A stretch of DNA of 64,000 nucleotides from a bacterium (GCA_963693055.1 OY843751.1:5952001-6016000); one strand, 5' to 3'; shown: positions 17,310-34,802, counted from the first letter of the stretch. Numbers and translations: made by a program. The notes: generated from the letters alone by a model not told the origin.

Positions 17310-17320
17310 AAATCCCTGGC

Positions 17321-17338
17321 CCGGCCCTCGTGGCCGGG
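17321..17338. repeat. GC-rich REP-like hairpin repeat, copy 1
   Basis: CCGGCCCTCGTGGCCGGG, identical at 31390 and 32340. Confidence 0.85.
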
Positions 17339-17547
17339 GCTGATGCCTCTAAATTATAAAAAAGAACCCTATTAACACTTTTCATCAAGTCAAAAACCGT
17401 TTGCTTTCATTTTCTTAAATTTGTATACTATTCTGTCAGATAATTTGTCAATAGCCGGGCCAAGCCCTTTCTTTAATATCTCCATGGGTAAAAACTCTTT
17501 TCCAATCAACATCTATCACTTTTAGATTATAATTCAAGTAGGATAAT

Positions 17548-18693
17548 TTGAAAAAATTGTTACTGACCATTTTATTGGCAGGTTTATGTAATATGGTGTT
17601 GGCACAGACCAATATCATGGATAACACAAATAATCTTGCTAAAGACCCCACCAACATGGATCAACTCCATGAGGGTGATATTGCTATCGTCTTTACCACA
17701 AATGCCACGCCATACGATTTATACAGTGCAACTCTGGTGCTATATAATTTTTCGCCAACGATTTCGGATGTCACATTTAGTATAAAGCTGGCAGATGGTA
17801 GTAATGTGCCAACAGGCTCTGTTTTAGCCTCTGAAACCTTTAATAATCAAGCAATTCCATCTACTGCGGCTTATAAAACTTTTACTTTTTCCACTTTAAA
17901 CAGCTACGCCTTTGATGCAAATACAAAGTACGCGCTAGTGGTAAGTACAACCGGGACTGCGTATAAGATTGATTGTGACGGTGTATTGCTGCCAACATCA
18001 AGTTATTATTCGGTTAACCGTACCTTACTTTATGATACGAGTTGGAACGATTTTAATTATTTTGCAATCCGGGTTATGGGCACTGAAGGCTCTCTTCCAG
18101 TAGAGCTTTCTACCTTTACAGCGAGCAGCAATGGCTCATCTGTGAATTTAGCGTGGGCAACCGAATCCGAAACAGACAACCTCGGATTCATTCTTGAACG
18201 CTCGAATGATAATAATTCGTGGCAAACCATTGCCTCATACCAGACCCATCCTGCCCTTAAAGGACAAGGTAACACATCGGATCGAACAAATTACTCTTTT
18301 ACAGACAAGATGGTAGAACCCGGTAATACTTATTTTTATCGTCTCTCGGATATCAGCACAAAAGGTGAAACCTCGGATTACACTTCTTTATCCGTTAAAG
18401 TGGACAAACTTCCGGAAACTACCGAAATGGAAAATGCGTATCCCAACCCATTCAATCCACAGACAAAGATTGCTTACAATCTGGCAATTGACACAAATGT
18501 AAACATAACCGTGTTCGACCTGTTGGGACGACAGGTGAAATCCCTTTTTAATGGAAACCAGACTGCCGGCAGTCATCATGTCTACTGGAATGCGATGAAT
18601 GAAACCGGCAGCACTGTCCCCAGCGGTTGTTACTTTATCCGGATGCAAACAGAAAACTCTACACAGATGCAAAAAGTCCTGTTGATGAAATAA
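17548..18693 (+). CDS. secreted protein with variable N-terminal beta domain and FlgD/T9SS-type C-terminal sorting domain (paralog A)
   Basis: TTG start, signal peptide; LPVELSTF..W.TESETDNLGF; AYPNPFNP..I.Y..FDLLGRQV..W..SGCYF..QKVLLMK. Confidence 0.85.
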   Translation: MKKLLLTILLAGLCNMVLAQTNIMDNTNNLAKDPTNMDQLHEGDIAIVFTTNATPYDLYSATLVLYNFSPTISDVTFSIKLADGSNVPTGSVLASETFNNQAIPSTAAYKTFTFSTLNSYAFDANTKYALVVSTTGTAYKIDCDGVLLPTSSYYSVNRTLLYDTSWNDFNYFAIRVMGTEGSLPVELSTFTASSNGSSVNLAWATESETDNLGFILERSNDNNSWQTIASYQTHPALKGQGNTSDRTNYSFTDKMVEPGNTYFYRLSDISTKGETSDYTSLSVKVDKLPETTEMENAYPNPFNPQTKIAYNLAIDTNVNITVFDLLGRQVKSLFNGNQTAGSHHVYWNAMNETGSTVPSGCYFIRMQTENSTQMQKVLLMK

Positions 18694-18729
18694 GGGATTA
18701 TTACAAAACGGTCGCCAATTTAATTTACA

Positions 18730-18760
18730 GATCGTGACGGAGATGATCTTCGTCACGATC
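18730..18760. repeat. 31-bp palindrome family, copy 1
   Basis: GATCGTGACGGAGATGATCTTCGTCACGATC; a decayed half copy lies at ~18826-18855. Confidence 0.9.
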
Positions 18761-18845
18761 TTAATAAAAAGAAATTTCTCATAGATTTTCCCCTGATAAC
18801 CAAAATGTTTATACGATGCATTTTAAATGATCAAAATAATTCCCG

Positions 18846-19202
18846 TCACATTCTTAAATCCAAATCCAGTACAATTTTAATATTTTCTATCACTTTTGAG
18901 ATTTTTTATGCTGGTAACATCCCAACTCTTTTTATCAATCTTTTATTATCAATAGCTCTTATCTGATCAATCATTAAATCGCAATTCTCGTTTACATTTG
19001 CTGTGCCTCTTTCAATATGTACCCGCAAAACATCTGATTTTATTGTAACCTTTGTAGTTATTGGGCAAATAATTGTAGAGAGATGATCAACTTTATTCAA
19101 CAGGTCTGTCAGTAATATAGCTACCGGTCTTGTTTTACCGGGTTCTGTACTTATCTGAGGATTTAGATCAGCTATCCAAATTTCGTATTGCTTAACCGTC
19201 AT
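18846..19202 (-). pseudogene. PemK/MazF toxin with premature stop
   Basis: EIWIADLNP..TEPGKTRP, TIICPITT, DQIRAIDNKRL; TAA at 18906-18908 is followed in frame by KISKVIENIKIVLDLDLRM*, the expected C-terminal helix. Confidence 0.75.
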
Positions 19203-19421
19203 AATCTATATCCTCAAACTCTTTTAATACTGTCACAGATTCGTCCCTGACAAATAAAGATTCCTTTGCAAGATTTTCCTCTATAATTTTTCGCTTTTGC
19301 AGCTTGTTGTAAAGTTCAATAGCCTCATTAATATATCGATTTCCGGGCTTTTTATGTCTGTTACTATTTGTTCAACATCTACAAAAATATCATCATCAAG
19401 CTTTAACGATATAGTTTTCAT
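19192..19421 (-). pseudogene. ribbon-helix-helix-type antitoxin, frameshifted
   Basis: MKTISLKLDDDIFVDVEQIVTDIK, then a shift in an A run (~19349-19353) to PGNRYINEAIELYNKLQKRK...EFEDIDYDG*, overlapping the toxin start. Confidence 0.7.
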
Positions 19422-19687
19422 AGTATATCCTTTCAGTATATACATAACTGACAAAAATTAAGGCATACGAATTATAATAAAAAGTCAATATTAATTTTAC
19501 AAAAACCTGATTAGCAAAAGTATTCACTTCGACATCCGAAACTGTACGAAAAAATGTTTATTTTATTGCGATGAGACGAGATATTGTATATATTAAAGAG
19601 TATATGTATTTTAAAAATTTAACAGTTCATCAATGCAAACATAATTAATCTCAACATAATTTTCAATCCAAATTTAAAGGATCGAAT

Positions 19688-20749
19688 ATGAAAAAAATCA
19701 AGGGAAAAGGTAATGTAACCAGACGTCAATTTATTGGAACTGGTACCGCAGCAACTGTCTTGACTGCGGGTGTATTGACTTCAAGTTGTTCTTCCAAACC
19801 AACACCAATGGCTACCGGTGTCGGAAAACCCAACTCTAAATTTGGCGGTGTTCAGATAGGTGCCTCAACTTATAGTATTCGTGGAATCAATCCATCAAAT
19901 GTGGACGAACTGTTAAAAGCCTGTATTGAGGCAGGCCTGAGTTCTATAGAATTCAGACAAACAAACCTTGCTGAAGAATGGTGTGGCGCACCCAAGGCTT
20001 TAAGACCCCCCATTAGACCCGGGCAAAGAGGATATGAACGGTTCAGAGCTCAACAAGAACGTGATTTAACAGAAGAAGAATATGCCGATCTTGAAAAAAA
20101 GGCCGCAGATTCAAGAGAAGCCTTAAAACAGTGGCGTTTATCCGCTCCCATGGATAAATTTGCAGAACTTGCCCAAATGTACAGGGCTGCCGGGGTAGAC
20201 ATCCACCTTATGAAATGGACCCCGGGCAGCTGGTCACTGGAAGAAATTGACTATGCATTCAAAGCTAACAAAGCCATGAATGTAAAGGGAATTACAGAAG
20301 AAATGAGACTGGAAACAGCCAAAAAAATGGGCCCGATTGCCGAAAAATACGGTTTGTATGCCGTCATGCATAACCATTATCAATACGCAGAAGAAGGATT
20401 CAACGTAGAAGATATTCTTGCCGTTTCACCAAGTATCATGTTGAATTTTGATGTTGGCCACTATTGGGGTTCAACCGGCATTAACCCCTGTGATTTCATT
20501 GAAAAATATCATGATCGGATTTACAGTTTGCACATCAAAGATAAAACCGGTCTCAATACAGAGCCACCCAATGCAAACCAGGTTTGGGGACAAGGTGATA
20601 CACCGTTAGAAGAAATATTGTTACTGATTAAAAACAAATATCCTCAAATCTATTGCGACATCGAACTGGAATACAGGATCGCTGCCTGGTCAAATTCTGT
20701 CAAGGAAACCAGAACCTGTGTTAACTATGCGCGCAATATTTTAATCTAA
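19688..20749 (+). CDS. Tat-exported sugar phosphate isomerase/epimerase (xylose-isomerase-like TIM barrel)
   Basis: TRRQFI; FGGVQIGASTYS, HNH, FDVGH, LHIKDK, IELEY. Confidence 0.85.
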   Translation: MKKIKGKGNVTRRQFIGTGTAATVLTAGVLTSSCSSKPTPMATGVGKPNSKFGGVQIGASTYSIRGINPSNVDELLKACIEAGLSSIEFRQTNLAEEWCGAPKALRPPIRPGQRGYERFRAQQERDLTEEEYADLEKKAADSREALKQWRLSAPMDKFAELAQMYRAAGVDIHLMKWTPGSWSLEEIDYAFKANKAMNVKGITEEMRLETAKKMGPIAEKYGLYAVMHNHYQYAEEGFNVEDILAVSPSIMLNFDVGHYWGSTGINPCDFIEKYHDRIYSLHIKDKTGLNTEPPNANQVWGQGDTPLEEILLLIKNKYPQIYCDIELEYRIAAWSNSVKETRTCVNYARNILI

Positions 20750-20772
20750 TACTGTACATTTACCTCTAGTAT

Positions 20773-20803
20773 GATCGTGACGGAGATTATCTCCGTCACG
20801 ATC
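20773..20803. repeat. 31-bp palindrome family, copy 2 (perfect)
   Basis: GATCGTGACGGAGAT-T-ATCTCCGTCACGATC. Confidence 0.92.
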
Positions 20804-21110
20804 TTTCAAATTAACTTTTTTACAAAAGGCTGGCTGATACGGCCTACCCTCCCAACAACAATCTCTACAACTCGATTTACCGGTATAGCTTTTCATTCAC
20901 AAGACTGTTAAATACTAAAGCCGCTCTGTTTACCCTTTGACACATCAGACCGAGTAATTATTAAAATTTTCAATTCTCCTGTTGTTTTTTTATCATACAT
21001 TATATATTTTAAATGCCAGTGTGTTATTTTCAGAAATACTGGTATTCAAGAAAATCTTAGAAAACCATCTATTATATTGTTTTCCGTTCTTTAATTAAAC
21101 AGGAGTAAAC

Positions 21111-22190
21111 ATGGAATCTATCCGGAACGTTATTGACTATACGGTATTCAATAATTCAGTCGGTCAATATCTACTGCTCAGCGGCGCCATTGTATTGGCA
21201 ATTATAGTAGGCAGGATTGTCTATTTTTTCTTTAAAACTTCTCTGCGCAGAATCGCACAAAAATCAAAAACCAAATTCGACGACTATCTCATTGATATTA
21301 TAGAGGAACCCATCGTTCTGCTGATCGTCAGTGGAGGCGTTTGGGTTGGGGCCCGGTTTCTGACACTGAACGAAGGCGGAATCAAATTCTTTCATAATGT
21401 AGTGATTACCCTGCTTGCCATTACCGCTACCTGGTTTCTGGTACGGTTCTTTGATATGCTGATCACCGCCTATATTGAACCGATAACCGAAAAATCAAAA
21501 AGCAAACTTGACGACCAGATCCTGCCCATCGTCCGTAAATCCGTAAAAACGGTTATTCTGGTCCTGGGAGGTATCATCATCCTGTCAAATCTGGGATATG
21601 ATATCTTGTCCATTCTGGCTGGCATTGGTATTGGTGGTTTGGCCATTGCCCTGGCAGCCCAGGATGCAGTCAAGAATATTATCGGTGGTATTACCATCTT
21701 TTGGGACAAGCCGTTCCAGATTGACGACTGGATTGAGATCAGCGGTAAATCCGGTTCCGTGCTTGAAGTAGGTATGCGAAGCACCCGTATCAAAACCGTA
21801 GGCGGCACGCATGTGGTCATCCCCAACAGCGCGATTGTGGATACCGTTGTGGAAAACTATTCCAAGCGCGAGCGACGCCGGATGGTGGTGAACATTGGTT
21901 TGGTCTATGAAACAACCGCAGATGATATGGATAAAGCCATGGATATTGTGAGAAAAACCATCGCTGATATTGAAGGTATTGACAGCGACGATACCGAAGT
22001 CAGATTTACCAACTTTGGTGCTTTTTCCCTTGATCTGGAAATTGTCTACTGGATCACGGACAGCAGTAACTGGAAGATCATTGTTCACAAGGTCAATATG
22101 GGTATCAAACGCAATCTGGATGAAGCCGGTATTGAAATGGCGTTCCCAACGGAAACCCATTATGTTATTAATCAGAACAGCGTGAAATGA
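21111..22190 (+). CDS. MscS family mechanosensitive channel
   Basis: GIGGLAIALAAQDAVKN, KPFQIDDWI, GMRSTRI, IPNS, GIEMAFPT. Confidence 0.93.
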   Translation: MESIRNVIDYTVFNNSVGQYLLLSGAIVLAIIVGRIVYFFFKTSLRRIAQKSKTKFDDYLIDIIEEPIVLLIVSGGVWVGARFLTLNEGGIKFFHNVVITLLAITATWFLVRFFDMLITAYIEPITEKSKSKLDDQILPIVRKSVKTVILVLGGIIILSNLGYDILSILAGIGIGGLAIALAAQDAVKNIIGGITIFWDKPFQIDDWIEISGKSGSVLEVGMRSTRIKTVGGTHVVIPNSAIVDTVVENYSKRERRRMVVNIGLVYETTADDMDKAMDIVRKTIADIEGIDSDDTEVRFTNFGAFSLDLEIVYWITDSSNWKIIVHKVNMGIKRNLDEAGIEMAFPTETHYVINQNSVK

Positions 22191-22507
22191 TCAATACCAT
22201 GCTTGACATATAAATATTTTATCGTATTTTCAGATATAGGATAAACCCGTCACTTATAAGCCCTTTTTTGCAGAGGCTGTTTATATTCATTGACCTGGTT
22301 AATAACCACTTGATTTCAGGTATCCGATACACCTCGGGGTATGCCTTGGTATATTTAATACTGGATTTTTTCCAGTGTGAGCTTGAAATATTTTAACCAT
22401 ACATAAAGAATTCCTGGTATAGGAGGGCCAGGCCATTTCGTAAAACAGGCAAAGGGTGGGAGCCCTTTACGATTAAAGTTATAAATACAACTTGAGGGAA
22501 AAATAAA

Positions 22508-23653
22508 ATGAAAAAAATTTTACTGACCATTTTATTGGCAGGGTTGTGTAGTATGGTGTTTGCACAGATTGAAATCATGGATAACACAGATAACCTTACC
22601 AAAGAGATCTGGGAGCTTGGTACTCACACTAATGGTGAAATTGCTATCATCTTTACGACTAACGCAACTCCATACAATTTACACAGTGTAACTCTGGTAC
22701 TCTATTCTTGGGCACCAGCTACTTCGGACGTTACATTTAGTATACAGCAGGCTTATGGCGATAATATACCAACAGGCCCTGTTTTGGCCTCTGAAACTTT
22801 TTCTAATCAAACTATTCCAGTTGTAGAAACCTATACAACCTTTACTTTTTCCAGTTTAAACAGCTACGCTTTTAGTGCAAATACAAAATATGCGCTTGTG
22901 ATAAGCACGTCTGAGAAGATTTCAATGTACCAGATTGACGGTATCGTGCTGCCAACATCAAGCTATTATACTGTGCACCATACCATACAATATGCTAGTG
23001 GTTGGTTCCCTTTTAATTCTTTTGCAATCAGAATAATGGGCACAGAGGGTGCTCTCCCCGTAGAGCTTTCTTCCTTTTCGGCAAAAAGTGAAAGCCGTTC
23101 CGTAGTTCTGGACTGGTTGACGGAATCCGAATCAGACAACCTGGGTTTTATCCTCGAACGATCAGATGATAACAATTCGTGGCAAACCATTGCCTCACAC
23201 CAGACCCATCCTGCCCTGCAGGGACAAGGCAATACATCGGACCGAACGGATTATTCTTTTACAGACAAGATGGTAGAACCCGATAAAACGTATTATTACC
23301 GTCTCTCGGATATCAGTACAAAAGGCGAAACCTCGGCTCTCTCTTCTGTATCCGTAAAAACAGACAAACTTCCTGAAACAACCGAAATGAAAAATGCGTA
23401 TCCCAACCCATTCAATCCACAGACAAAGATTGCTTACAATCTGGCAATTGACACAAATGTAAACATTTCCGTGTTCGACCTGTTGGGACGACAGGTGAAA
23501 TCCCTTTTTAATGGAAACCAGACTGCCGGAAGTCATCATGTCTACTGGAATGCGACGAATGAAACCGGCAGCAATGTCCCCAGCGGTTGTTATCTCATCC
23601 GCATGCAAGCGGGAAATACGACACAGATGCAAAAGGTTATATTGATGAAATAA
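22508..23653 (+). CDS. secreted protein with variable N-terminal domain and FlgD/T9SS-type CTD (paralog B)
   Basis: same length (381 aa) and architecture as 17548-18693; long identical nucleotide tracts in the 3' third. Confidence 0.85.
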   Translation: MKKILLTILLAGLCSMVFAQIEIMDNTDNLTKEIWELGTHTNGEIAIIFTTNATPYNLHSVTLVLYSWAPATSDVTFSIQQAYGDNIPTGPVLASETFSNQTIPVVETYTTFTFSSLNSYAFSANTKYALVISTSEKISMYQIDGIVLPTSSYYTVHHTIQYASGWFPFNSFAIRIMGTEGALPVELSSFSAKSESRSVVLDWLTESESDNLGFILERSDDNNSWQTIASHQTHPALQGQGNTSDRTDYSFTDKMVEPDKTYYYRLSDISTKGETSALSSVSVKTDKLPETTEMKNAYPNPFNPQTKIAYNLAIDTNVNISVFDLLGRQVKSLFNGNQTAGSHHVYWNATNETGSNVPSGCYLIRMQAGNTTQMQKVILMK

Positions 23654-23692
23654 GGAAATTTTTCCAGTAGGTTTTGAAAAAACAGCTATTCA

Positions 23693-23723
23693 GATCGTGA
23701 CGGGGATAATCTCCGTCACAGTC
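23693..23723. repeat. 31-bp palindrome family, copy 3
   Basis: GATCGTGACGGGGATAATCTCCGTCACAGTC. Confidence 0.88.
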
Positions 23724-23845
23724 CTTTGTATTACGTACGCTATCATCCGGGGGACGGTTGTAAAAGATCACGGCTTTAAAATATCAACAATTCTCCTACC
23801 CAAATAACACTTTTGCGGGAGATTTTCTGTTTCTTTCAACAGACA

Positions 23846-23937
23846 CCGGGAGGTGAAATCTTTGCTACCTCTAAAACAGAAAAAGACCGGATAAACCGAA
23901 CTGAAAGTACTGTCCAAGGGTGCAAGGCTTCGAATCC
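23846..23937 (-). repeat. decayed direct repeat of the tRNA-Gln 3' end, terminator and flank (att-like scar)
   Basis: aligns to 32531-32620 at about 65/92 positions by hand, including GGGTGCAAGGCTTCGAATCC vs GGGTGCAGGGATTCGAACCC. Confidence 0.8.
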
Positions 23938-24058
23938 ACCGATAGAGAAACAACATTCCCCGGTTTCCTCATAATACTTTTTCATTGATTCTTTAAAGAA
24001 ATATGATTAATTACTATTACTTTTTAACAAAATACCGATATATGTAAGGGATACCAGA

Positions 24059-25567
24059 ATGGATCTTCGATTGTATATACTCTGCCTTACCCTGTGTCTT
24101 GGGATGATTGCCACGGCTTGCTACGCTGAATCGACCCCGGATACAGCAACCCATATTGTTACTCTCAAACAGGCACATGTAGGCAGCCTGGAAATAGACT
24201 CGCTTCTTCTGGACAGTTTTGAACGTCTGCCGGAAGCACAACGCTCTTTTTACCTAAAGGCCCGTGAAATCCTTGCAAGCTGTCCTGACGCCACACTTAG
24301 CGATCCCAAAATCATCAAAGCCGCCAAAAAGGCCGGTCTTGCCCTCATCAGCGGACCGATGTTGGGTGATGTTTCAGAGAGCGATATTACCATCTGGTTT
24401 CGTCCGGTCCTTGCTGAAGCTTTGAAAGTAAATGTCACAGATAAAGAAGGAAATCAAAAGTCTTTCCCTGTCGAGGTTACCCAGCCCGGAGCGGCCACCC
24501 GGGTCAGGATTACCGGATTGTCGGCAAACACCCCATACCTCTACCAGATCGTTAACAGTGCAGGTGCTGTTTTAGGCAATGGCTCTTTTCACACTGCTCC
24601 TGAACCGAATACCACAGACACCATGCGCATTGCTTTTGGTTCGTGCTATCACAAGATCGGTGTTCACAATCCCAATTTGATGCGATTGATTGTAGAGCGC
24701 GGCAATCTTGCCATGCTGCTTTTGGGTGATATAGCAGTGGATGACCGGGAAACCAACACCCATATGCACTATGCCGATTATCTTTTACGAGACGTTTCAA
24801 AACCGTGGCGAACATTTTCTGCCAATATTCCGGTCTATGCCAGTTGGGATGATCACGATTATCTGAACAATGACAAATCCGGTCTTCAAAAAGGTCAGAT
24901 AACAAACATGCAGCGTAACGCGCTGCGGAAACTCTGGCAGGAAAACTGGGTCAATCCCCAGACGTCTGTCACAGATCGCGGCATCTATTTCAACACCGTC
25001 ATTGGCGATGTGGAAATCATCATGCTCGATACCCGCTCTTGCCGAAACTGGCAGAAACGGGAACAGCGCGGTTCCTACCTTGGTGATACACAAATGCAAT
25101 GGCTTTTTAAAACCCTCAAGGCATCCAAAGCCCGGTTTATCATTCTGACCAGCGGCACCATGTGGAGCGACTATATGTCCAAAGCAAAGGACTCGTGGGG
25201 CAGTTGGGACATTCCGGGACGAGAAGAGATCTATAACTTTATAGAAGAGAACCAGATAGGCGGTGTATTGCTTCTAAGTGGCGACCGTCACGGCGCACGC
25301 AGTTTCAAGATTAAACGGCCATCGGGTTTTGCGCTGCATGAATTTGAAGCTGCAACCCTGGGCGGTGTTCCCGGTCCGGACGCGTTTGCCCCGGACAAAT
25401 CGGCACAGCTCTTTGGATACAAAGGCGGATTGATCGCGTTTGGTGAATTCACTTTTGACATGAACAAAGCGGATCCCACAGTGACATTTCGCCTGATCAA
25501 TGAAGCTGGGACGGAGCTTGAAAAGCATACCTTTCGCTGTTCCCAGCTTACTCCTCAGAAACAGTAA
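24059..25567 (+). CDS. alkaline phosphatase D (PhoD) family metallophosphoesterase
   Basis: IAFGSC, LLGD, WDDHD, MLDTR, LSGDRH; N-terminal purple-acid-phosphatase-like Ig domain; signal peptide. Confidence 0.9.
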   Translation: MDLRLYILCLTLCLGMIATACYAESTPDTATHIVTLKQAHVGSLEIDSLLLDSFERLPEAQRSFYLKAREILASCPDATLSDPKIIKAAKKAGLALISGPMLGDVSESDITIWFRPVLAEALKVNVTDKEGNQKSFPVEVTQPGAATRVRITGLSANTPYLYQIVNSAGAVLGNGSFHTAPEPNTTDTMRIAFGSCYHKIGVHNPNLMRLIVERGNLAMLLLGDIAVDDRETNTHMHYADYLLRDVSKPWRTFSANIPVYASWDDHDYLNNDKSGLQKGQITNMQRNALRKLWQENWVNPQTSVTDRGIYFNTVIGDVEIIMLDTRSCRNWQKREQRGSYLGDTQMQWLFKTLKASKARFIILTSGTMWSDYMSKAKDSWGSWDIPGREEIYNFIEENQIGGVLLLSGDRHGARSFKIKRPSGFALHEFEAATLGGVPGPDAFAPDKSAQLFGYKGGLIAFGEFTFDMNKADPTVTFRLINEAGTELEKHTFRCSQLTPQKQ

Positions 25568-25579
25568 CTGCTTTTTACT

Positions 25580-25610
25580 GATCGTGACGGAGAGTATCTC
25601 TGTCACGATC
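25580..25610. repeat. 31-bp palindrome family, copy 4
   Basis: GATCGTGACGGAGAGTATCTCTGTCACGATC. Confidence 0.9.
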
Positions 25611-25664
25611 TTTGATATTCCTATAATCGTTGAGAACAAATGATCAAAAAAGAAAAAACCATAA

Positions 25665-26258
25665 ATGAAAATGAATTTTAAAAAATATCTTGGTGAAGGG
25701 TTTCTAATTGTATTTAGTGTTCTTTTTGCCCTTTATATTAACAAAACATATGAAAAGGCAAAAACAACCAGCGCTAAAAACAATGCCATCAAACAAATCA
25801 AAGCAGAGTTGTTAGAAAATCAAAATACATTAGATGACTGGATAGCAGACCATAAAACTATACTCGAAAATCTAAACCATTTGATCGAAAGTAAAAATGA
25901 CAGTATTCAAATAATTGTCAAAAATAATAGTTATATACCTACACAAACCCTTTTAGCCAATAAAAATCTAATGAGCAAACCCTTGTCAAATTCAGCATGG
26001 AGTTCTGCCCAATCTATTGGAATCATATCAGAATTTGATTTTCAGACATTAAAAAACATTAACGAAACCTATGCATTGCAGCAGTTAATACTGGAAACCT
26101 CTATTGAAAAAATTGCGGAAAGATTTCTTTTAAAATCAAATGATGTTGAAAATACAAAAGCTCTGCTGATTGAATTCAGATTACGGTTCCAGAATTTACA
26201 AGGTCAGGAAACTAGATTACAACAGTTGTATAATGAAACAATCGAAATACTGGAATAA
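25665..26258 (+). CDS. hypothetical membrane-anchored helical protein (DUF6090-like)
   Basis: KYLGEGFLIVFSVLFALYIN N-terminal anchor followed by a coiled coil. Confidence 0.6.
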   Translation: MKMNFKKYLGEGFLIVFSVLFALYINKTYEKAKTTSAKNNAIKQIKAELLENQNTLDDWIADHKTILENLNHLIESKNDSIQIIVKNNSYIPTQTLLANKNLMSKPLSNSAWSSAQSIGIISEFDFQTLKNINETYALQQLILETSIEKIAERFLLKSNDVENTKALLIEFRLRFQNLQGQETRLQQLYNETIEILE

Positions 26259-26288
26259 ATTATTACATCAATATGGATCTTTCCAACT

Positions 26289-26333
26289 GCTCATGACGAT
26301 GAGCTCATTCAAGATCTTTGATATTCCTATAAT
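26289..26333. repeat. decayed palindrome copy 5 ending in an exact 21-bp direct repeat
   Basis: GATCTTTGATATTCCTATAAT at both 25607-25627 and 26313-26333. Confidence 0.8.
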
Positions 26334-26407
26334 ACACCTCCGTGTGGTAATAAAACACGTTATTAAAATTAGGTTAATGATTTATTATTTTGTTCAAGGA
26401 TTTTATT

Positions 26408-27118
26408 TTGAAAAGGTTTGATTTCAAAGTCGGTACTATTCCCTCGATTTTATGGGGAGAAAAATCAGAAAATATCTTTATAGCCATTCACGGGAATATG
26501 TCAAATAAAGCGGATGATGTAATTGCTATTTTTGCGCAAGAAGCGGTTAATTCGGGTTACCAGGTTCTAAGTTTTGATTTGCCAAAACATGGAGATCGTA
26601 AAAATGAAGCAACTCTCTGCAAAGTTCAAAACTGTGTCAAAGAGCTTGATGTCATATTGGAATACGCAAAATCAATTTCAAATAACGTGAGTGTCTTTGG
26701 TTGCAGTATTGGAGCGTATTTGAGTCTTTTAGCATATAAACATGAAGCGCTGCGACAAGCAATGTTACTGTCTCCAATTGTTAATATGGAATCCATTATT
26801 GTCAATATGATGAACATGTTTAATATAACAGAAAAAAGACTTTATGATGAAAAAGAAATTGCAACGCCCATCGGTGAGGTCCTCTATTGGGATTATTATT
26901 CCTTTGTTAAGGAACATCCAGTTGTTGAATGGAAAATACCAACCTCGATTTTATACGGATCAAAAGATAATTTGACAGCTCATGATACTGTTTCTTCATT
27001 TTCCCGCCGCTTCAATTCTGATCTGACAGTATTAGAAAATGGAGAACATTTCTTTCATACAGATGAACAATTATCTTTTTTTAGACAATGGCTCCAAAAC
27101 ATCTTACAGATCACATAA
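26408..27118 (+). CDS. alpha/beta hydrolase (integron cassette ORF)
   Basis: IHG, FDLPKHG, GCSIG nucleophile elbow, GSKD, GEHFFH; TTG 26408 lies 7 nt after AAGGA (the ORF track starts at 26390). Confidence 0.88.
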   Translation: MKRFDFKVGTIPSILWGEKSENIFIAIHGNMSNKADDVIAIFAQEAVNSGYQVLSFDLPKHGDRKNEATLCKVQNCVKELDVILEYAKSISNNVSVFGCSIGAYLSLLAYKHEALRQAMLLSPIVNMESIIVNMMNMFNITEKRLYDEKEIATPIGEVLYWDYYSFVKEHPVVEWKIPTSILYGSKDNLTAHDTVSSFSRRFNSDLTVLENGEHFFHTDEQLSFFRQWLQNILQIT

Positions 27119-27122
27119 TCTA

Positions 27123-27200
27123 AAATAACAAATGCATTCACCCAACCTCCCCGCCGCTCATGCAACTCAATAGGGTTGGCTGGTGATGCTGGTGTTAAAA
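27123..27200 (+). mobile_element. integron attC site
   Basis: R'' AAATAAC, L'' GCATTCAC(C), inner stem CCAACC/GGTTGG, L' (G)GTGATGC with one extrahelical base, R' GTTAAAA; 78 bp, begins 4 nt after the hydrolase stop. Confidence 0.75.
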
Positions 27201-27345
27201 ACAATCATACTCTCATCAACAGGATTTATATGAAAATCAACTTGCAACAATGGCTCCTGGTTCTTTTATGTGTTTTTTCAAATACAGCAATTCAAGCACA
27301 AGAGCGAACCCTTTCTGGAAAGTACATGACTGTAGAGGATACAAT

Positions 27346-28383
27346 ATGAAGAAAATCATCCCTTTATTACTCTTGATGTTAATCCCATATTTTGGTGTTT
27401 TGGCACAAACGGATTTGAAACCGATTACAGAACCCATCAAAATCATTTTTGACACGGATATGGGATCTGACTGTGATGATGTAGGAGCGCTGGCCCTGTT
27501 ACATACCTATGCGGATATGGGCAAGGTTGAAATTCTTGGATGTATCTATAGCTCGGGCAAAGTACCCTATGGTGCGGGAATTGTTCAGGCAATTAACATA
27601 TATTGTGGCCGGCCCCATATACCCGTGGGTGCGAACCATAAAGACGATGTTGGTGATACTGTGGATAAAATGAGTGCGGAAAAGCTGGCAAAAGACACCG
27701 CTGCTTTCGGGAACACGATTATATCCAACACCGATGCTGTTGAACAAACACAGCTGAACAGGAAATTACTTTTAGAACAGCCGGACCATAGCGTGACCTA
27801 TATTACCGTAGGCCATACAAAAGGATTGTATGATCTGTTGGTTTCGGAAGGAGATGCCATAACGCCTTTGAACGGATTGGAACTGGTCCGAACCAAAGTC
27901 CGTCGCTGGGTGGCTTTGGGTGCGCTTGGCGCAAACAATAAAAAAAGAGAATACACGCAAGACTGGAATTTCTTTAAAAACGGCACCGCACCATATACAA
28001 AATATCTAATCGATAATGTACCGGTGCCTATGGTTTTTGTGGATGCCGGTGCTGATGTGATGACCGGTAAATCCTTAAAGCAGACACCTGCTGGCAATAT
28101 CATCCGTACAGCCTATCGGGACTGGCTTTGGTGGTATGGCAAAAAAACACTTGATGACCAAAGGCCAAGCTGGGACCTGGCCACGGTCTATTATGCGGTT
28201 GAAGGCGTTGGCGGTTTTTTGATAAACAGCGGAACCGGCTATTTAGACTTTGATCCGGATAAAGGATGTAAATGGATTCCCGACAAGAACAAACACATGC
28301 AAACCTACATCAATCAAAAGGATGGTGTTGCAAAAGACTTTGCAGATTATCTGAACATGATGATTGCCAAACCCCGGGAGTGA
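27346..28383 (+). CDS. secreted nucleoside hydrolase family protein
   Basis: IIFDTDMGSDCDDVGAL, DWNF, RPSWDL; signal peptide from ATG 27346 after GAGGA. Confidence 0.88.
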   Translation: MKKIIPLLLLMLIPYFGVLAQTDLKPITEPIKIIFDTDMGSDCDDVGALALLHTYADMGKVEILGCIYSSGKVPYGAGIVQAINIYCGRPHIPVGANHKDDVGDTVDKMSAEKLAKDTAAFGNTIISNTDAVEQTQLNRKLLLEQPDHSVTYITVGHTKGLYDLLVSEGDAITPLNGLELVRTKVRRWVALGALGANNKKREYTQDWNFFKNGTAPYTKYLIDNVPVPMVFVDAGADVMTGKSLKQTPAGNIIRTAYRDWLWWYGKKTLDDQRPSWDLATVYYAVEGVGGFLINSGTGYLDFDPDKGCKWIPDKNKHMQTYINQKDGVAKDFADYLNMMIAKPRE

Positions 28384-28485
28384 TGGATTGCGTTTTAGGG
28401 GATGATTCCTTTGAGTAATCCTCCGGGTACACCTCTCAGAGAAGATTTGATACGAGTCTCGAAACATGAACAGATAAAAAATCCC

Positions 28486-28516
28486 GATCGTGACGGAGAT
28501 AATCTCCGTCACGATC
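28486..28516. repeat. 31-bp palindrome family, copy 6 (perfect)
   Basis: GATCGTGACGGAGAT-A-ATCTCCGTCACGATC. Confidence 0.92.
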
Positions 28517-28866
28517 TTTTGGATTGAATACGGACGCTAAAGCTCAAAAAAGATATAGATAAAAACTTTAAACCACAGATACACTCAAGATAGTACAGTC
28601 CTTGACCCTCTACACAGTTTTTTAGTAAAAATGTATATTTTCCTATTGACTCTTTCCAAAAATATGATTAACTAAAATTATACCCGAAGTAAAATTTCAA
28701 TGTGCAATACAAGTTTTATAGCATAACATGTCATAATTCATTGTCAATAGGTTTAAGCAAAAAACTATTTTTACTTAATAGAATAATATGTGTATTCTAT
28801 TTCTGGCTAAAACTTGTTAAATACTATATTGGGCTTATCTCTGTTCAATAAAAATGAGGAACTATT

Positions 28867-31374
28867 GTGGTAGACTTTGACAAATTAAGAACCAAAAAGA
28901 AAAAAACCAAGGCGATAGAACCATCTGAAATTTTCCGTCGCTTACCGAAACCACCTGGAATCAATGATCTCTACACCAGTCAAGCTGAGGTACTTCATGC
29001 TTGGTTTAAAAATAGGCAAGAACGCGATACTGTCGTAAAGCTGCATACTGGTGGTGGTAAAACTCTGGTTGGCCTTCTTATGGCTCAATCAACGCTGAAT
29101 GAAACTTCAGAGCCTGTTCTCTATCTTGCTTCAACTGTCCAACTTGTTAATCAGACTATAGAAAAAGCAATCAGTATTGGCATAAACGCCGTCGCATACG
29201 AACGAAGACAGCCATTGAACGAAGACTTTATAAACTCAAATGCCGTCATGGTTGGCACATATAAGGCTCTATTCAATGGGCGGAGCAAATTTGGTCTTCG
29301 TGGAGATCCATTACCACAAAAAGTCTCAGCAGTCATCCTTGATGATGCCCATGCTGCCTTTTCCGTTGTACGCGAATCCTTTACGCTTGATGTCAAAGCC
29401 GAAGTGGATAGAGAAAGATATGAAAGTTTAGCTGATTTATTTCGAAAGGCATTTAAGGAAACAGATAAGATTGGGACATTTGATGATATCATTGCGGGAT
29501 CTGAATATTCTGTTTTGGAAGTTCCGTATTGGGCGTGGCATGAGCAACTAGATACTGTCCGTGAACAAATAAAATCAGATGCAGATAAATATGCTCTAGT
29601 TTGGCCACTTTTACGAGATCAATTGCATTTTTGTCACGCGCTAATAAGCCGTAATGCTTTCACAATTACACCGATTCTCCCGCTTGTAAATGCCTTCCCA
29701 ACTTTCTTTGATGCATCACGACGCATTTATATGTCTGCAACAATAGCTGATGATAGTGATATCGTTCGTACATTTGATGCGAATCCTGAAGCAGTGCAGA
29801 AGCCACTGACTTCTCGATCGTTAGCAGGCGTAAGTGAACGTATGATTTTGATTCCTGATCTGATGCCATTCAAATTCGATGTAACGAATGCAATCAAAAA
29901 AATTGTTGAATGGACTTCAAAGAATAAACTAGGAGCAATAATTCTTGTCCCGTCCGATAAAGCTGCAGAAAAATGGATAGATTCTGTAACTGTAGCAAAG
30001 GGGTCTGCCGAAGTTGAAAAACTTGTAGCCGACTTGCAGGAAAGGGCAACATCGGGACCAGTTGTATTTGCAAACCGATACGATGGCATCGATTTACCAG
30101 GCGATTCATGCCGATTGCTTGTTATGAGCGGTCTGCCTGCTGGTACATCAAATTACGAGTTATTTCGAGCAGCCGCTCTTTTTGGTGCTACAACAATCAA
30201 TAGGATGCTCGCCCAACGAATTGAGCAAGGCATTGGAAGGGGGGCCAGAGGCTCTGGGGATCATTGTGTAGTCCTTCTTGCTGGGGCAGACATTGCGGGC
30301 TGGGTGGCTAAAGACGCTAATTTTAAGCTTCTAACCAATGCCACAAGAGCACAAATTGAAATGGGTGCAGAGATCAGCAAAGAAGTAAGTGATCTTAAGG
30401 AGCTTGCACAAACAATTCAACGGAGTTTCGATCGCGATAAAGGATGGATTGAATATCACGCAGAAACTCTTGCTGAATTGGTGGATGAAGAGGCTCCAGA
30501 AGAATTACGATTTATACAAGCCGCTGGAGAAAGAAAAGCTTTTAATTTGTGGGTCGACGGCTATCATGAGCAGGCAATTTCGAAAATTGAGAAAAACCTA
30601 ATTAAAATAAATTCATTGGATTTACAAATTTGTGGATGGATGGAGCAATTAGCTGGTCGCATTGCCGATCGTTGGGGACATCCTGATCGTGCGGATTATT
30701 TCCAACGCCAGGCATATGCACATAACCGTTGCCTAACCCGTCCAAAAGTTCTACCCCCTTATCGTCGGTTATCAGCTCCTAGCGTACAAGCGATGGCTAT
30801 TGTAAATCAACTAATCGATTACCGGTTAAGACGAGGTTTTTTGCAGTCTTTTGAGGAAGTTGTTTCACATCTGCATCATAACTCCTCTGCTAGTCAATTT
30901 GAACAGGCTTTGGCCGATCTTGCCATCATGATCGGGCTTTCCTCTGAGAGACACGATATAAATGGCCAAGGTCCTGATGTATTATGGCTTTTGCCAGAAA
31001 AAATTGGATTTGTCATTGAAGCAAAAAGCCGTAAAAAGGAAAAAAATGCGCTTACAAAAGAAGAACATGGGCAACTCTTAGTCGCCGCCGAATGGTTTAG
31101 TACCAATTATAAAGGATACGAATGTGTTCGTGTGAGCGTTCATCCAAAAAATCAAGCGACAAAAGCCGCTGTTGCAGGTGCTTCACACGCTTTAACCTAT
31201 GAAAAATTAGCGCTTCTAGTCTCTGATTCCCGCGCTCTTCTTTCTACTCTTTCCGAATCACAACTATCCGCAGAAGACCTTGTGATAGAGTGCCAAAGGC
31301 TTTTATCGAATACATCATTAAGAGCTGAGCAAATTTCAAAGAATTATTTGCTTCCATTTAAAGAGATAGAATGA
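28867..31374 (+). CDS. SF2 (DinG/XPD-like) helicase fused to a C-terminal PD-(D/E)XK nuclease; Hna-like anti-phage protein
   Basis: LYTSQ, HTGGGKT, ILDDAH, YMSAT, NRYDGIDL and EQGIGRGARG motifs; GPDVLW...VIEAKS nuclease motif; 835 aa. Confidence 0.78.
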   Translation: MVDFDKLRTKKKKTKAIEPSEIFRRLPKPPGINDLYTSQAEVLHAWFKNRQERDTVVKLHTGGGKTLVGLLMAQSTLNETSEPVLYLASTVQLVNQTIEKAISIGINAVAYERRQPLNEDFINSNAVMVGTYKALFNGRSKFGLRGDPLPQKVSAVILDDAHAAFSVVRESFTLDVKAEVDRERYESLADLFRKAFKETDKIGTFDDIIAGSEYSVLEVPYWAWHEQLDTVREQIKSDADKYALVWPLLRDQLHFCHALISRNAFTITPILPLVNAFPTFFDASRRIYMSATIADDSDIVRTFDANPEAVQKPLTSRSLAGVSERMILIPDLMPFKFDVTNAIKKIVEWTSKNKLGAIILVPSDKAAEKWIDSVTVAKGSAEVEKLVADLQERATSGPVVFANRYDGIDLPGDSCRLLVMSGLPAGTSNYELFRAAALFGATTINRMLAQRIEQGIGRGARGSGDHCVVLLAGADIAGWVAKDANFKLLTNATRAQIEMGAEISKEVSDLKELAQTIQRSFDRDKGWIEYHAETLAELVDEEAPEELRFIQAAGERKAFNLWVDGYHEQAISKIEKNLIKINSLDLQICGWMEQLAGRIADRWGHPDRADYFQRQAYAHNRCLTRPKVLPPYRRLSAPSVQAMAIVNQLIDYRLRRGFLQSFEEVVSHLHHNSSASQFEQALADLAIMIGLSSERHDINGQGPDVLWLLPEKIGFVIEAKSRKKEKNALTKEEHGQLLVAAEWFSTNYKGYECVRVSVHPKNQATKAAVAGASHALTYEKLALLVSDSRALLSTLSESQLSAEDLVIECQRLLSNTSLRAEQISKNYLLPFKEIE

Positions 31375-31389
31375 ATGGGCGAACATAGT

Positions 31390-31407
31390 CCGGCCCTCGT
31401 GGCCGGG
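31390..31407. repeat. GC-rich REP-like hairpin repeat, copy 2
   Basis: CCGGCCCTCGTGGCCGGG. Confidence 0.85.
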
Positions 31408-31467
31408 AATTATTTTAAAAATCCCGGAGGTAAGCTCCGGGTTACTTAGCACTGGAAGGAAACATGT

Positions 31468-32310
31468 TTGACTAATATCACGAATAAAAACTCAGCTCCT
31501 CTGACTGACACTATCATAGTAGCACTATCGAAATTAGTGGACGATGCGCAGGAACAGACATATCGCGAGCCTAGCCACTCCGAAATTCAGACACAGATTG
31601 ATAGAGCCCAATTATCATCGTGCGACCCTAATCAACAGGGTCAAACGCTTGGAAAGGCAAAACGTGTTCGTGCTGTCCTAAACTGGGCTATTGAGAACAA
31701 TGCGGATGCAGGAGGTAGGTTTGTCTATGGACTACTCAGCCACATTAGGGGATGTGGAGGTTTTCGTGTAGAGTCTCCAAACTACGCTGGAGCAGATGCC
31801 ATTCGTGGTGCAGTTGAGGCCTTTAATACAGAGGGTTTCTTGTTGGGGTTTGACGGGGTTCTAAGTCGAAAGGTTCTTGATGGATTGTCTGGAAACGAAC
31901 TCACAGAGGCACTTGAGGGTTACGTACACCGCGCGAAAAAGGGGGTTGCGGATGCTGCCTTGCTCACCGGAACAAGTAAAGATCTATTGGAAGCCACTGC
32001 TGCTCATGTCCTGATAACAAGATTCGGGGATTATTCGACAAGAGACAACTTTCCAATGTTGCTCGGACAGGCATTTGTCGCACTCGAACTATCTGTCCCC
32101 AATGATGGCAAGGATGATACACCGATCAATCGCCTTGATAGGGGCCTCTTCGAGGCGGCCTGTGCGATTAACACACTTCGCAACAAACAGGGAACAGGTC
32201 ACGGCCGCCCATGGTTGCCCACGGTATCAGATCACGTTGCACGTACTGCGGTGGAGACGATGGGTTTGGTGGCAGAACGGATGCTCAATGTCTTGCAAGG
32301 TGCAAAGTAA
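31468..32310 (+). CDS. abortive infection family protein (Abi_C, HEPN-like)
   Basis: SKDLLEATA and LRNKQGTGHGR (RxxxxxxH-type) motifs; N-terminal KAKRVRAVL domain. Confidence 0.82.
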   Translation: MTNITNKNSAPLTDTIIVALSKLVDDAQEQTYREPSHSEIQTQIDRAQLSSCDPNQQGQTLGKAKRVRAVLNWAIENNADAGGRFVYGLLSHIRGCGGFRVESPNYAGADAIRGAVEAFNTEGFLLGFDGVLSRKVLDGLSGNELTEALEGYVHRAKKGVADAALLTGTSKDLLEATAAHVLITRFGDYSTRDNFPMLLGQAFVALELSVPNDGKDDTPINRLDRGLFEAACAINTLRNKQGTGHGRPWLPTVSDHVARTAVETMGLVAERMLNVLQGAK

Positions 32311-32339
32311 TGGTATAACCAGGAGATGTAGTCCATTCC

Positions 32340-32357
32340 CCGGCCCTCGTGGCCGGG
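32340..32357. repeat. GC-rich REP-like hairpin repeat, copy 3
   Basis: CCGGCCCTCGTGGCCGGG. Confidence 0.85.
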
Positions 32358-32476
32358 GCCTATCTAAGAAACACCATCATTAATCCCCATTATCACCTTT
32401 AAAATTTTTACTAAATCTTTTCTGCCCCAATCCGGATCGTACCACTCCATTTTAACGTATTTATGAAATGTTGATT

Positions 32477-32507
32477 GAACATGACTGAAATATTCTCCGT
32501 CACGATC
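32477..32507. repeat. 31-bp palindrome family, copy 7 (left arm decayed), adjacent to tRNA-Gln
   Basis: GAACATGACTGAAATATTCTCCGTCACGATC. Confidence 0.8.
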
Positions 32508-32563
32508 TTTGTAATACTTTTATTATACCTCCGGGAGGTGCAACACGGTTCCCCCTAAAACGC

Positions 32564-32587
32564 AAAAAGGCCGGATATACCGACCTT
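32564..32587 (-). terminator. tRNA-Gln terminator
   Basis: minus strand AAGGTCGGTATATCCGGCCTTTTT. Confidence 0.7.
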
Positions 32588-32597
32588 GTGTATTGTG

Positions 32598-32668
32598 CTG
32601 GGGTGCAGGGATTCGAACCCCGGTTCCATGAGCCAGAGTCATGTGTCCTGCCGCTGGACGACACCCCA
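32598..32668 (-). tRNA. tRNA-Gln(CTG)
   Basis: TGGGGTG/CACCCCA acceptor stem, CATGA-CT-CTG-GC-TCATG anticodon arm, GGTTCGAATCC T-arm; CCA not encoded. Confidence 0.95.
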
Positions 32669-32698
32669 GTTTGGCTATATTATAAACGAGTTACCGTT

Positions 32699-34192
32699 TC
32701 AACGTGTAATGGCTGTAGCGCCTGCTTTCAGCCGTCTTGTCACCGTTTCTTTGCCAAGGACTACCAACATATCGTAAAGTCCCGGACCTACACCCATGCC
32801 GGATACCGCTAACCGTACCGGGTGTATCAGTCGACCTGTACCGGCTTCATTTCGCTCGGTCACCACATGGAGGGCTTTTTCAATCGACTCTTTATCAAAC
32901 ACATCTAATTTAACAATTTCATCAACAAATTCAAGTATTAATTTTACTGAATCGTCTTTCCATCTCTTTTTAACCGTTTTTTCATCATAATGTTCCGGAT
33001 CTTTGAAAAAATATTCTCCCAGTACGGCAAACTGGTCCACAAACAACATGCGGGATTTTAACAGATCCACAACTTTAAACAAATATTCTTCAGAGCCATA
33101 ATCCAGTCCCTTTTCAGCCAGTTGAGGTTTTACCTGTTCAACCAGCTCTGCTGTGTCGCGTTGGGTAATGTGCTCGCCGTTTACCCATTCCAGCTTGCGC
33201 AGATCAAAAATAGCCGCAGCCTTGTTTACGCGCTCGAGCGAGAATTCGTTCACCAGTTCTTCTTTGGTGAATATTTGACGTTCATCACCTTCACCGGGAT
33301 TCCAACCCAGCAAGGCTATATAATTTATGATCGTTTCCGGTTCGAATCCTTTTTTCACATAAGATGCCACATCCGGGTCCACTTTGCCCTGCGGCAGATC
33401 GTCGAGCGACTGGATGTCACGTTTGGACATTTTGGATTTGTCCGGATTCAGGATCAGCGGCAGATGCGCCATTTCAGGGGCCTGCCAGCCAAAGCATTCA
33501 TACAGATAGATATGCTTGGGCACACTGCTAAGCCACTCTTCACCACGGATCACATGCGTGATCTCCATCAGGTGATCATCAACTACGTTTGCCAAATGGT
33601 ATGTGGGGAACCCGTCCGATTTGATCAATACCTGGTCATCTACCTGCTCGCTCTTGAAAGAAACCTCGCCACGGATAATATCTTTGAATGTAAAAGTACG
33701 GTCCTCGGGAATCTTTAATCGGATGACATGTGGCGTTTCCGCATCTATCAGTTCCTGTACCTGGGCGTTATCCAGATTCAAGCTGTTGCGCATTTCATTA
33801 CGAATAGAAGCGTCATATTTCAAATGCGGGTTACCGGTGGATTTTCGTTTTTCATCCATTTCTTCCGGCGTATCAAAGGCGATATACGCATGTCCGTTAT
33901 CCAAAAGCTCCTGAGCATATTTTTTGTACAGATCGGTACGCTCGGATTGGAAATAGGGGCCAAAATCTCCGCCGGTTTCGGGACCTTCATCAGGAACCAG
34001 ACCGGCCCAGTTCAAGGCGGAAATCAGGTTTTCGGTTGCACCCTCTACAAAGCGGGTGCGGTCAGTATCTTCTATGCGCAAAATAAAAGTCCCGCCATGT
34101 TTTTTTGCGAACAGATAATTGTACAGTGCTGTTCGCAGTCCACCGATGTGAACAAAACCTGTGGGACTCGGCGCGAATCTCGTTCTTGTCAT
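32699..34192 (-). CDS. gltX: glutamate--tRNA ligase
   Basis: RFAPSPTGFVHIGG, LRIEDTD, DDHLMEITHVIRGEEW, KMSKR. Confidence 0.97.
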   Translation of the reverse strand: MTRTRFAPSPTGFVHIGGLRTALYNYLFAKKHGGTFILRIEDTDRTRFVEGATENLISALNWAGLVPDEGPETGGDFGPYFQSERTDLYKKYAQELLDNGHAYIAFDTPEEMDEKRKSTGNPHLKYDASIRNEMRNSLNLDNAQVQELIDAETPHVIRLKIPEDRTFTFKDIIRGEVSFKSEQVDDQVLIKSDGFPTYHLANVVDDHLMEITHVIRGEEWLSSVPKHIYLYECFGWQAPEMAHLPLILNPDKSKMSKRDIQSLDDLPQGKVDPDVASYVKKGFEPETIINYIALLGWNPGEGDERQIFTKEELVNEFSLERVNKAAAIFDLRKLEWVNGEHITQRDTAELVEQVKPQLAEKGLDYGSEEYLFKVVDLLKSRMLFVDQFAVLGEYFFKDPEHYDEKTVKKRWKDDSVKLILEFVDEIVKLDVFDKESIEKALHVVTERNEAGTGRLIHPVRLAVSGMGVGPGLYDMLVVLGKETVTRRLKAGATAITR

Positions 34193-34195
34193 AAC

Positions 34196-34585: not shown

Positions 34586-34593
34586 CTCTTTAG

Positions 34594-34680: not shown

Positions 34681-34703
34681 GAATGAGCTTGCTTTACGTC
34701 TAG

Positions 34704-34787: not shown

Positions 34788-34802
34788 GATTGATAGACAA
34801 TA

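Follow-up and report, generated by a model that had tools for sequence, protein, structure and literature searches.

Repetitive extragenic palindromes (REPs) and bacterial interspersed mosaic elements (BIMEs) are short intergenic hairpins, clustered at one HUH/Tyr transposase gene and dispersed chromosome-wide; the transposase is referred to as RAYT (REP-associated tyrosine transposase), such as TnpA-REP of the E. coli REPtron (PDB 4ER8). TnpA-REP nicks single-stranded DNA (ssDNA) 5' or 3' of the REP and joins strands (PMC3333891, PMC8266576); it has further been suggested that the enzyme amplifies units through nick-primed copying and captures flanking genes (PMC3333891). Why bacteria keep RAYT-REP systems has been described as an open question (10.1101/2021.07.10.451892). 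Additive flexible genomic islands, with modules added at a fixed tRNA locus, have been reported in Alteromonas (PMC4898812). Both REP/RAYT systems and additive tRNA islands are therefore already known. In this work we describe a stretch of 64,000 nucleotides (the window, G000:C1:5952001-6016000) from a single-contig bacterial genome of 6.5 Mb (G000), in which unrelated modules of one or two genes, separated by copies of a 31-bp palindrome, are piled up beside a tRNA-Gln gene. The palindrome is very probably a REP-type dispersed hairpin repeat tied to a RAYT. We read the tRNA-Gln region as an additive gene island, and lean toward the RAYT as the enzyme that made its seams, by nicking ssDNA at REPs with a GATC foot. 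Most of the comparison rests on the sole genome of the same genus, G001 (3 contigs, 98% complete, 87-95% identity to G000 in shared DNA).

The system shares with REP/BIME the clustering at one transposase gene, the dispersal and the tandem amplification. It departs from them in its foot, which is GATC and not the canonical 5' GT[AG]G (GTAG/GGAG), and in that its REPs stand at the seams of accessory genes; the RAYT of G001, moreover, has no more than weak similarity to 4ER8 (E 0.009). “Double foot” REPs of subclass 2.4 offer a parallel for the symmetric form, explained there by central deletion of an inverted dimer (PMC6006769). TIRtrons, with their TIRYT enzymes, likewise comprise non-GTAG repeats that have spread as a family in association with a Y1 transposase (PMC3733652), but the G001 RAYT gene lies amid many hairpins, of two types on opposite strands, and not within one inverted-repeat pair. 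The Alteromonas islands share the fixed tRNA locus and the additive modules; unlike them, this locus has no integrase, the host terminator forms part of its repeat, which stops at a REP, and most seams carry a REP only. Integrons and clusters of attC sites lacking an integrase (CALINs) also string together unrelated modules of one or two genes with ssDNA hairpins between them, but the hairpin of this array is perfect and symmetric, without attC bulges, and its modules keep their own promoters and lie in both orientations; for IntI, TIGR02249 remained below cut-off in G000 and G001. Finally, Ssn GIY-YIG nucleases with NTS/SRM hairpins combine hairpin repeats near variable genes with ssDNA recognition by a small nuclease (PMC11893778); enzyme class and repeat are different here, and tRNA is unmentioned in the available part of that paper. 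No GATC foot is present in the foot column of Table S1 of PMC6006769 (12 GATC matches, all in other columns) or in its main text, nor in the main text of PMC3733652, whose supplements may list such repeats. Literature searches, with subscription journals outside their coverage, returned no account of a GATC-footed REP, of REP-made cassette arrays or of GIY-YIG tRNA arrays.

A GATC-footed repeat and its transposase

The palindrome is composed of a GATC foot, a 14-pair stem, a 3-base loop and a second GATC foot; at the junctions it forms a perfect 14-pair stem on either strand, with a centre that varies like a loop. Allowing up to 2 mismatches, 29 copies are found in G000, 43 in G001 and none in the remaining 29 of the 31 genomes searched, and a reversed control pattern gives 0. 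A genome scan returned G001 only, a third REP-bearing genome not being found; metagenome scans for the tRNA flank and for the palindrome gave 0 stretches, and Rfam recognized only tRNAs. The initial annotation of the window, made from its sequence, had placed copies at 18730, 20773, 23693, 25580 and 28486, and a decayed one at 26289; all are present, together with a degenerate copy at 32477. A second, long-loop form has the same 13-base arms around a loop of 12-15 bases (16 copies in G000 with one mismatch per arm allowed, 40 in G001 with the exact pattern). One long-form copy of G001 is footed at both ends (G001:C3:451113-451152), a double-footed long-loop intermediate. The lagging-strand template carries thirteen of the 16 long REPs (p 0.02, gene direction not being controlled), and the stems show 64 paired double changes vs 32 expected. 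CT is enriched directly 5' of the foot, at 7/49 short arms and 4/15 long REPs of G000 vs about 4% locally. REP sites are often mosaics with several unrelated hairpin families, and tandem copies of a REP with 150-500 bp of its flank occur at several sites without a tRNA.

A search for Y1 transposases led to a RAYT gene of G001 (G001:C3:340671-341201; L055:4671-5204) buried in hairpin arrays, where a long-loop hairpin with the 13-base arms of the palindrome is accompanied by a second GATC-footed hairpin on the opposite strand; 23 footed hairpins lie within 3 kb of the gene. Its protein reaches 116 bits with NF047646 (cut-off 80), with HUH and Tyr motifs present. Beside the closest RAYT of another family (59% identical) stands a hairpin whose loop is the same and whose stem has changed yet still pairs. 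Furthermore, at least two GATC-footed hairpins were found at 10/32 related RAYT loci (9 genomes; two loci overlap) vs 0-1/32 for five control feet. Other Y1 genes, considered as partners of the palindrome, were rejected on account of the different hairpins that they carry; Xer/dif and parS readings were also discarded, since no core resembling dif is evident and the arms belong to a RAYT.

The perfect symmetry of the palindrome could also suit a protein-binding site, whether an operator or a chromosome-organizing site of the origin region, whose link to variable genes would be incidental. From GC skew, the origin of G000 is at about 6.05-6.1 Mb and its terminus at about 2.8 Mb, so that the tRNA-Gln locus is ~100 kb from the origin, and 38 of the 41 copies with up to 4 mismatches are within 1.1 Mb of it. 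Long REPs and another hairpin family are, however, origin-biased too, the centre varies like a loop, positions differ widely between the two species and the arms are those of the RAYT-flanking arrays, all of which makes such a site highly improbable. Near the origin, a segment of about 45 kb is inverted between the two genomes, and both of its ends lie at or beside REP copies (L023:11375 and L024:14133 in G001; G000:C1:6076781 and 6066967-6118638).

The cognate RAYT has been lost from G000, and hence the G000 array is probably no longer RAYT-driven. The site of the RAYT and its REP arrays is occupied in G000 by a TIR / patatin-phospholipase / ThsB-like cassette (L144:2640-5822; G000:C1:4902640-4905822), three genes with Thoeris-like matches and a ThcA-like domain; REPtrons of E. 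coli show a similar exchange, with the gene lost in one lineage and a defence or toxin-antitoxin cassette, hicAB, in its place (PMC3333891).

Remains of another transposase are found in the window itself. The last 33 codons of a second, GTAG-type RAYT (32378-32476) adjoin the left side of the tRNA-proximal REP and are cut there, with 14/17 residues identical to the G001 RAYT at L053:4645-5193. This GTAG-type RAYT, with CCTGGGC hairpins, is intact at that G001 locus, is split over two frames at G000:C1:6442214-6443005 (L056), and represents the source family of the remnant. Judging from its position, a small hairpin with CCGGCC arms next to the remnant is likely the REP of that RAYT.

Module turnover at the tRNA-Gln gene

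Contigs from three runs of the source sample (depth about 3.5-9) tile 15500-35000 and agree with the assembly. The sole contig joint inside the array links 25611 to 28491, and carries no information because its short side, of 23 letters, falls inside a REP. Blocks common to G000 and G001 are TIM-barrel-REP-MscS, PhoD, the nucleoside hydrolase, the 28486 REP with a promoter-like stretch, and 290 bp beside the tRNA. Nowhere in G001 did we find either secreted paralogue, the broken toxin-antitoxin pair, the 25581-27324 block (which begins exactly in a left GATC foot) or the helicase-Abi_C pair. At this locus G001 has seven REPs and five genes of its own: an ICMT-like gene, two without family, one with a Fib_succ_major domain and an RraB-like gene. 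A fixed tRNA-Gln locus thus holds different cassette sets in the two genomes, as in additive islands. The module gain or loss that had been looked for at the junctions is borne out, since G001 differs at REP seams. Two further expectations did not hold: three of the five G001-only genes point away from the tRNA, which nearly all modules had been thought to face, and the tRNA-proximal slot, assigned to defence genes, is filled in G001 by the RraB-like and Fib_succ_major-domain genes, with no recognized defence gene.

The newest G001 module, of 1.75 kb, sits between two copies of REP, flank, terminator and tRNA 3' end that are identical at 129/144 positions; this 144-bp repeat begins at the REP foot and ends within the tRNA, and the displaced tRNA-Gln copy contains a 44-nt CCGCC double-hairpin insert in its T-arm. 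Another G001 REP retains a terminator remnant (score 39). In G000, a copy reported to reach into the tRNA near 23693-23937 is confirmed at 23825-23937, with 82/116 columns identical to the flank, the terminator and the last ~24 nt of tRNA-Gln. At least twice, therefore, a module was added beside the tRNA and the 3' end of the tRNA was duplicated (23825-23937 and the 144-bp repeat of G001), and modules enter at internal REPs too, not only beside the tRNA.

The initial annotation had gone further, proposing that pieces of one composite unit, comprising palindrome, flank, terminator and tRNA end, recur at every junction. Scored against 70 flanks of palindromes elsewhere in the genome (maximum 28, 95th percentile 24), one of the six junctions is clear (23693, score 85), two are borderline (26289, 25; the inverted piece left of 28486, 28) and three (18730, 20773 and 25580) are at chance level; the remaining scores are 22 at 18730, 20 at both 20773 and 25580, and 23 at 28486. 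The profile scan that had been suggested as a check, run with the flank without palindrome and tRNA, gave no match at E < 1 other than itself and 23833-23902. The CCCCTAAAACGCAAAAA piece corresponds to the terminator region's tail, and motifs like it also occur after tRNA-Glu, -Asp and -Asn. The inverted CCCCTAAAACGCAA piece at 28388 pointed to terminal inverted repeats around 28388-32566, a reading that was rejected, since the piece is borderline only and absent from G001.

The shared unit had been interpreted as one att arm of integrase-free circles, integrated serially at tRNA-Gln by a tyrosine recombinase acting in trans. In both genomes, displaced tRNA 3' fragments do lie distal to the added modules; repeats of this kind have been described in additive tRNA islands (PMC4898812); and one relative from another genus, G005, shows a 43-bp tRNA-Gln 3' repeat around a 1.3-kb insert without integrase. 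That no integrase is in view was correct, in that no tyrosine recombinase is encoded in the window; the list of candidates in G000 comprises seven tyrosine-recombinase matches, none of them near the window, and no cognate RAYT. Nor was a recombinase found in 60 kb of G001 or at the tRNA-Gln loci of nine relatives. The “arm”, moreover, is a genome-wide RAYT-tied repeat plus the host terminator: 27 of the 41 G000 copies with up to 4 mismatches are more than 15 kb away from any tRNA, three of the six distal junctions have no trace of the tRNA flank and most junctions consist of a REP only. A genuine integrase island is available for comparison at tRNA-Asp of G001 (22.5 kb), and its 49-bp repeat is confined to the tRNA, with unrelated DNA beside the intact gene, whereas the Gln duplication copies the host terminator and stops at the REP foot. 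Integration in trans is consequently quite improbable, and the att arm gives way to a REP. Two outcomes had been named as counting against a capture array: genome-wide dispersal of the palindrome, which is what we find, and an unchanged gene order in relatives, which we do not, the junctions being variable.

The tRNA-Gln 3' end plus terminator repeat was found in none of nine other-genus relatives (1.3-18.7 kb of DNA each), save for the 43-bp repeat of G005. The insert that this repeat bounds (L004:6698-8121) follows tRNA-Gln, is AT-rich and holds three genes; no integrase or REP was found in the DNA up to the contig end there.

A different origin for the tRNA duplications would be a cassette system made of a small GIY-YIG gene and a CCGCC-type hairpin, the REP being copied along and the cargo arriving later. 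Arrays of tRNA 3' end and terminator are associated with such cassettes at tRNA-Met and tRNA-Lys of G001 and tRNA-Asp of G000, and occur without the gene at tRNA-Glu and tRNA-Pro; the CCGCC double hairpin of the G001 tRNA-Gln duplicate is of the kind seen at tRNA-Met and tRNA-Lys. There is no GIY-YIG gene at tRNA-Gln in either genome, however, and neither the REP-foot end of the duplication nor the REP-only junctions would be explained. We regard these cassettes as an unlikely source of the whole pattern; they are compatible with RAYT-made seams as the source of one end of the duplication.

The tandem arrays at tRNA-Met, -Lys, -Glu and -Pro, each duplicate of which holds a CCGCC-type hairpin while small GIY-YIG genes are present or not, are located at L061:3900-5400 and L025:4700-6000 (G001) and at G000:C1:3850500-3851389 and 3672754-3673000. 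At G000:C1:5147242-5160000 (L042), tRNA-Asp is followed by a GIY-YIG cassette and then by Rhs toxin-immunity orphan modules, which are separated by a 320-bp unit comprising a tRNA-Asp terminator remnant and a degenerate GATC REP; this unit is also present at 1540087-1540494 and 2229340-2234243, far from tRNA-Asp.

Seams at REPs across the chromosome and a proposed mechanism

The association of REPs with seams extends beyond the window. In the G001 regions that were fetched, intergenic regions are broken relative to G000 in 28/33 cases with a REP vs 56/155 of the others (p 4e-7). Flank exchange was scored where an element has an orthologue and one or both of its flanks are homologous, REPs without an orthologue being excluded and tandem copies counted separately. 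One flank is wholly exchanged at 12/25 short and 5/12 long orthologous REPs (17/37 together), vs 55/665 random intergenic 31-mers in the same loci and 8/247 in 11 loci picked blind to REPs. Many breaks fall within the foot or within 5 nt of it. Among single-copy long REPs, the 5' flank is changed at four sites (274165, 278889, 5325896, 5329123), to which the RAYT site can be added, and no site has a changed 3' flank; five sites are intact and one is triplicated.

These observations suggest a mechanism in which the RAYT would nick ssDNA at or just 5' of the GATC foot and join new DNA there. The short symmetric REP may have arisen by collapse of two inverted REPs and would then have a foot on both strands, so that either flank could be exchanged. 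Where the REP stands 90 bp behind the tRNA, REP, terminator and the 3' part of the tRNA could be duplicated around the cargo, either by nick-primed copying or when a circle re-integrates. The tRNA-side end of the duplication probably comes from the small-hairpin / GIY-YIG tRNA cassettes acting at other tRNAs of the genus: the CCGCC-type insert in the G001 Gln duplicate implies that the GIY-YIG system may supply that end. By analogy with E. coli TnpA-REP, the RAYT itself is predicted to have made most of the seams, a proposition to which we give an even chance. A bolder extension is that GATC-guided RAYT and REP constitute an integrase-free gene-capture system, which would nick just 5' of the foot, join incoming foreign ssDNA to the hairpin and, at a REP behind a tRNA gene, copy REP, terminator and tRNA 3' end, serially piling up modules at tRNAs (at Gln, and at Asp with its Rhs toxin-immunity modules); we consider it speculative and rather doubtful.

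The main rival is a passive hotspot, in which the RAYT spreads REPs into tolerant variable regions and the REP marks the seams without the enzyme joining any cargo. The seams would then arise by recombination between REP copies, hairpin-stimulated deletion, hairpin-targeting insertion sequences or DNA uptake from relatives. REPs have indeed been described as insertion sequence targets and recombination sites (10.1101/2021.07.10.451892), dRS3/NTS repeats have been proposed as recombination homology (PMC11893778), and the mosaics of unrelated hairpin families at REP sites fit this picture. Its weight comes from two points, that seams are marked by terminators as well and that the comparison is limited to two genomes. 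Flanks are exchanged at 6/24 terminator-like and 3/15 other hairpins (9/39). Several breaks lie on the foot to the base, however, and long REPs lose their 5' flank only (4:0). The rival is further weakened at the first step, since the REP is genus-specific and much of the cargo foreign, so that the first join of cargo to REP was not homologous. A passive hotspot is thus possible but less favoured than RAYT-made seams.

Several points weigh against the RAYT as the maker of the seams. REPs are not significantly above terminators or other hairpins in flank exchange (p 0.11-0.14), and gene-end hairpins may therefore mark seams passively. The 5' bias of 4:0 is too small for significance, gains and losses cannot be polarized because only two genomes carry the REP, and 40 of the 64 paired double changes in the stem come from one position. 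CT 5' of the foot is a minority feature and may be an inherited consensus. The short symmetric form never adjoins the G001 RAYT gene itself, and the cognate RAYT was not found in G000. Furthermore, IS256 lies beside REPs at 5605530 and 6068577, at one site with its transposase gene next to the REP, and other elements therefore make seams there too.

Should REPs prove to be passive markers only, what is left is a GATC-footed REP clade not yet catalogued, together with an ordinary tRNA hotspot. If the gene-capture idea is true, RAYTs would gain a host function, that of building accessory-gene arrays around the origin. The idea is directly testable, since dozens of REP sites can be compared base by base between a closed genome that lacks the enzyme and a near-closed sister genome that has it; the enzyme is small and soluble, its guide (GATC) is defined and non-GTAG, and the predicted junctions are at hand.

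At G000:C1:5612100-5615450, the orientation of tRNA-Lys(CTT) is opposite to that in G001, a 2.7-kb insert follows it and the rearrangement edges lie around a REP; by eye, the insert resembles a restriction-modification block.

Features of the array and its surroundings

Table 1. Coordinates of repeats, RNA elements and genes at the tRNA-Gln array (window positions).
Feature	Position	Strand	Remarks
Secreted protein with C-terminal sorting domain, paralogue 1	17548..18693	+	not found in G001
Short symmetric GATC-footed REP, after secreted paralogue 1	18730..18760	.	both flanks differ from matching G001 REP
Broken PemK/MazF-type toxin-antitoxin pair	18906..19421	-	not found in G001
TIM-barrel gene and MscS gene	19688..22190	+	common to G001 (89%)
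Short REP, perfect	20773..20803	.	in same place in G001, between TIM-barrel and MscS genes
Secreted paralogue 2	22508..23653	+	not found in G001
Short REP	23693..23723	.	ends 1.2-kb duplicate (80% identical) of gene+REP unit 17543-18756
Old duplicate of tRNA-Gln 3' end, terminator and flank	23825..23937	-	nhmmer E 1.3e-7; score 85
PhoD-like phosphatase	24059..25567	+	common to G001 (87%), there abutting nucleoside hydrolase gene
Short REP	25580..25610	.	left GATC foot is exact left end of 1.74-kb block missing from G001
AT-rich block: 197-aa open reading frame, alpha/beta hydrolase, attC-like hairpin	25665..27197	+	not found in G001
Decayed REP plus flank	26289..26330	.	local copy of 25580 unit
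Nucleoside-hydrolase-like gene	27346..28383	+	common to G001 (94%)
Short REP, perfect	28486..28516	.	kept in G001 with promoter-like stretch to 28699; genes differ beyond
PDC-S28 helicase (defence candidate) and Abi_C gene	28867..32310	+	not found in G001
Different small hairpin, CCGGCC arms	32338..32358	.	copies at 17321 and 31390
C-terminal remnant of second, GTAG-type RAYT gene	32378..32476	-	cut off at REP
Degenerate tRNA-proximal REP	32477..32507	.	start of 144-bp unit duplicated in G001
tRNA-Gln flank and intrinsic terminator	32508..32596	-	hairpin about 32567-32587
tRNA-Gln(CTG), intact	32597..32668	-	

The gene labels of the initial annotation mostly stand, with three amendments. The helicase, labelled Hna, is a PADLOC PDC-S28 match (936 bits) and is not called Hna; the 197-aa open reading frame has no Pfam match; and the toxin-antitoxin pair is broken, its antitoxin being split over two frames and its toxin carrying an early stop. 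The fold of the attC-like site at about 27126-27197 is not beyond that of shuffles (z -1.4).

The promoter-like stretches 23974-24019, before PhoD, and 28635-28680, before the helicase, are 76% identical, and the latter is kept in G001 ahead of a different gene. A further degenerate REP is found at 2720-2950 of the window, right after the first glycoside hydrolase gene and beside a GxxExxY (PF13366) gene (2822-3235). At 44859-54332 the window also contains an open reading frame of 3157 aa with weak Pfam matches only, beside SpoIIE/STAS and TPR genes.

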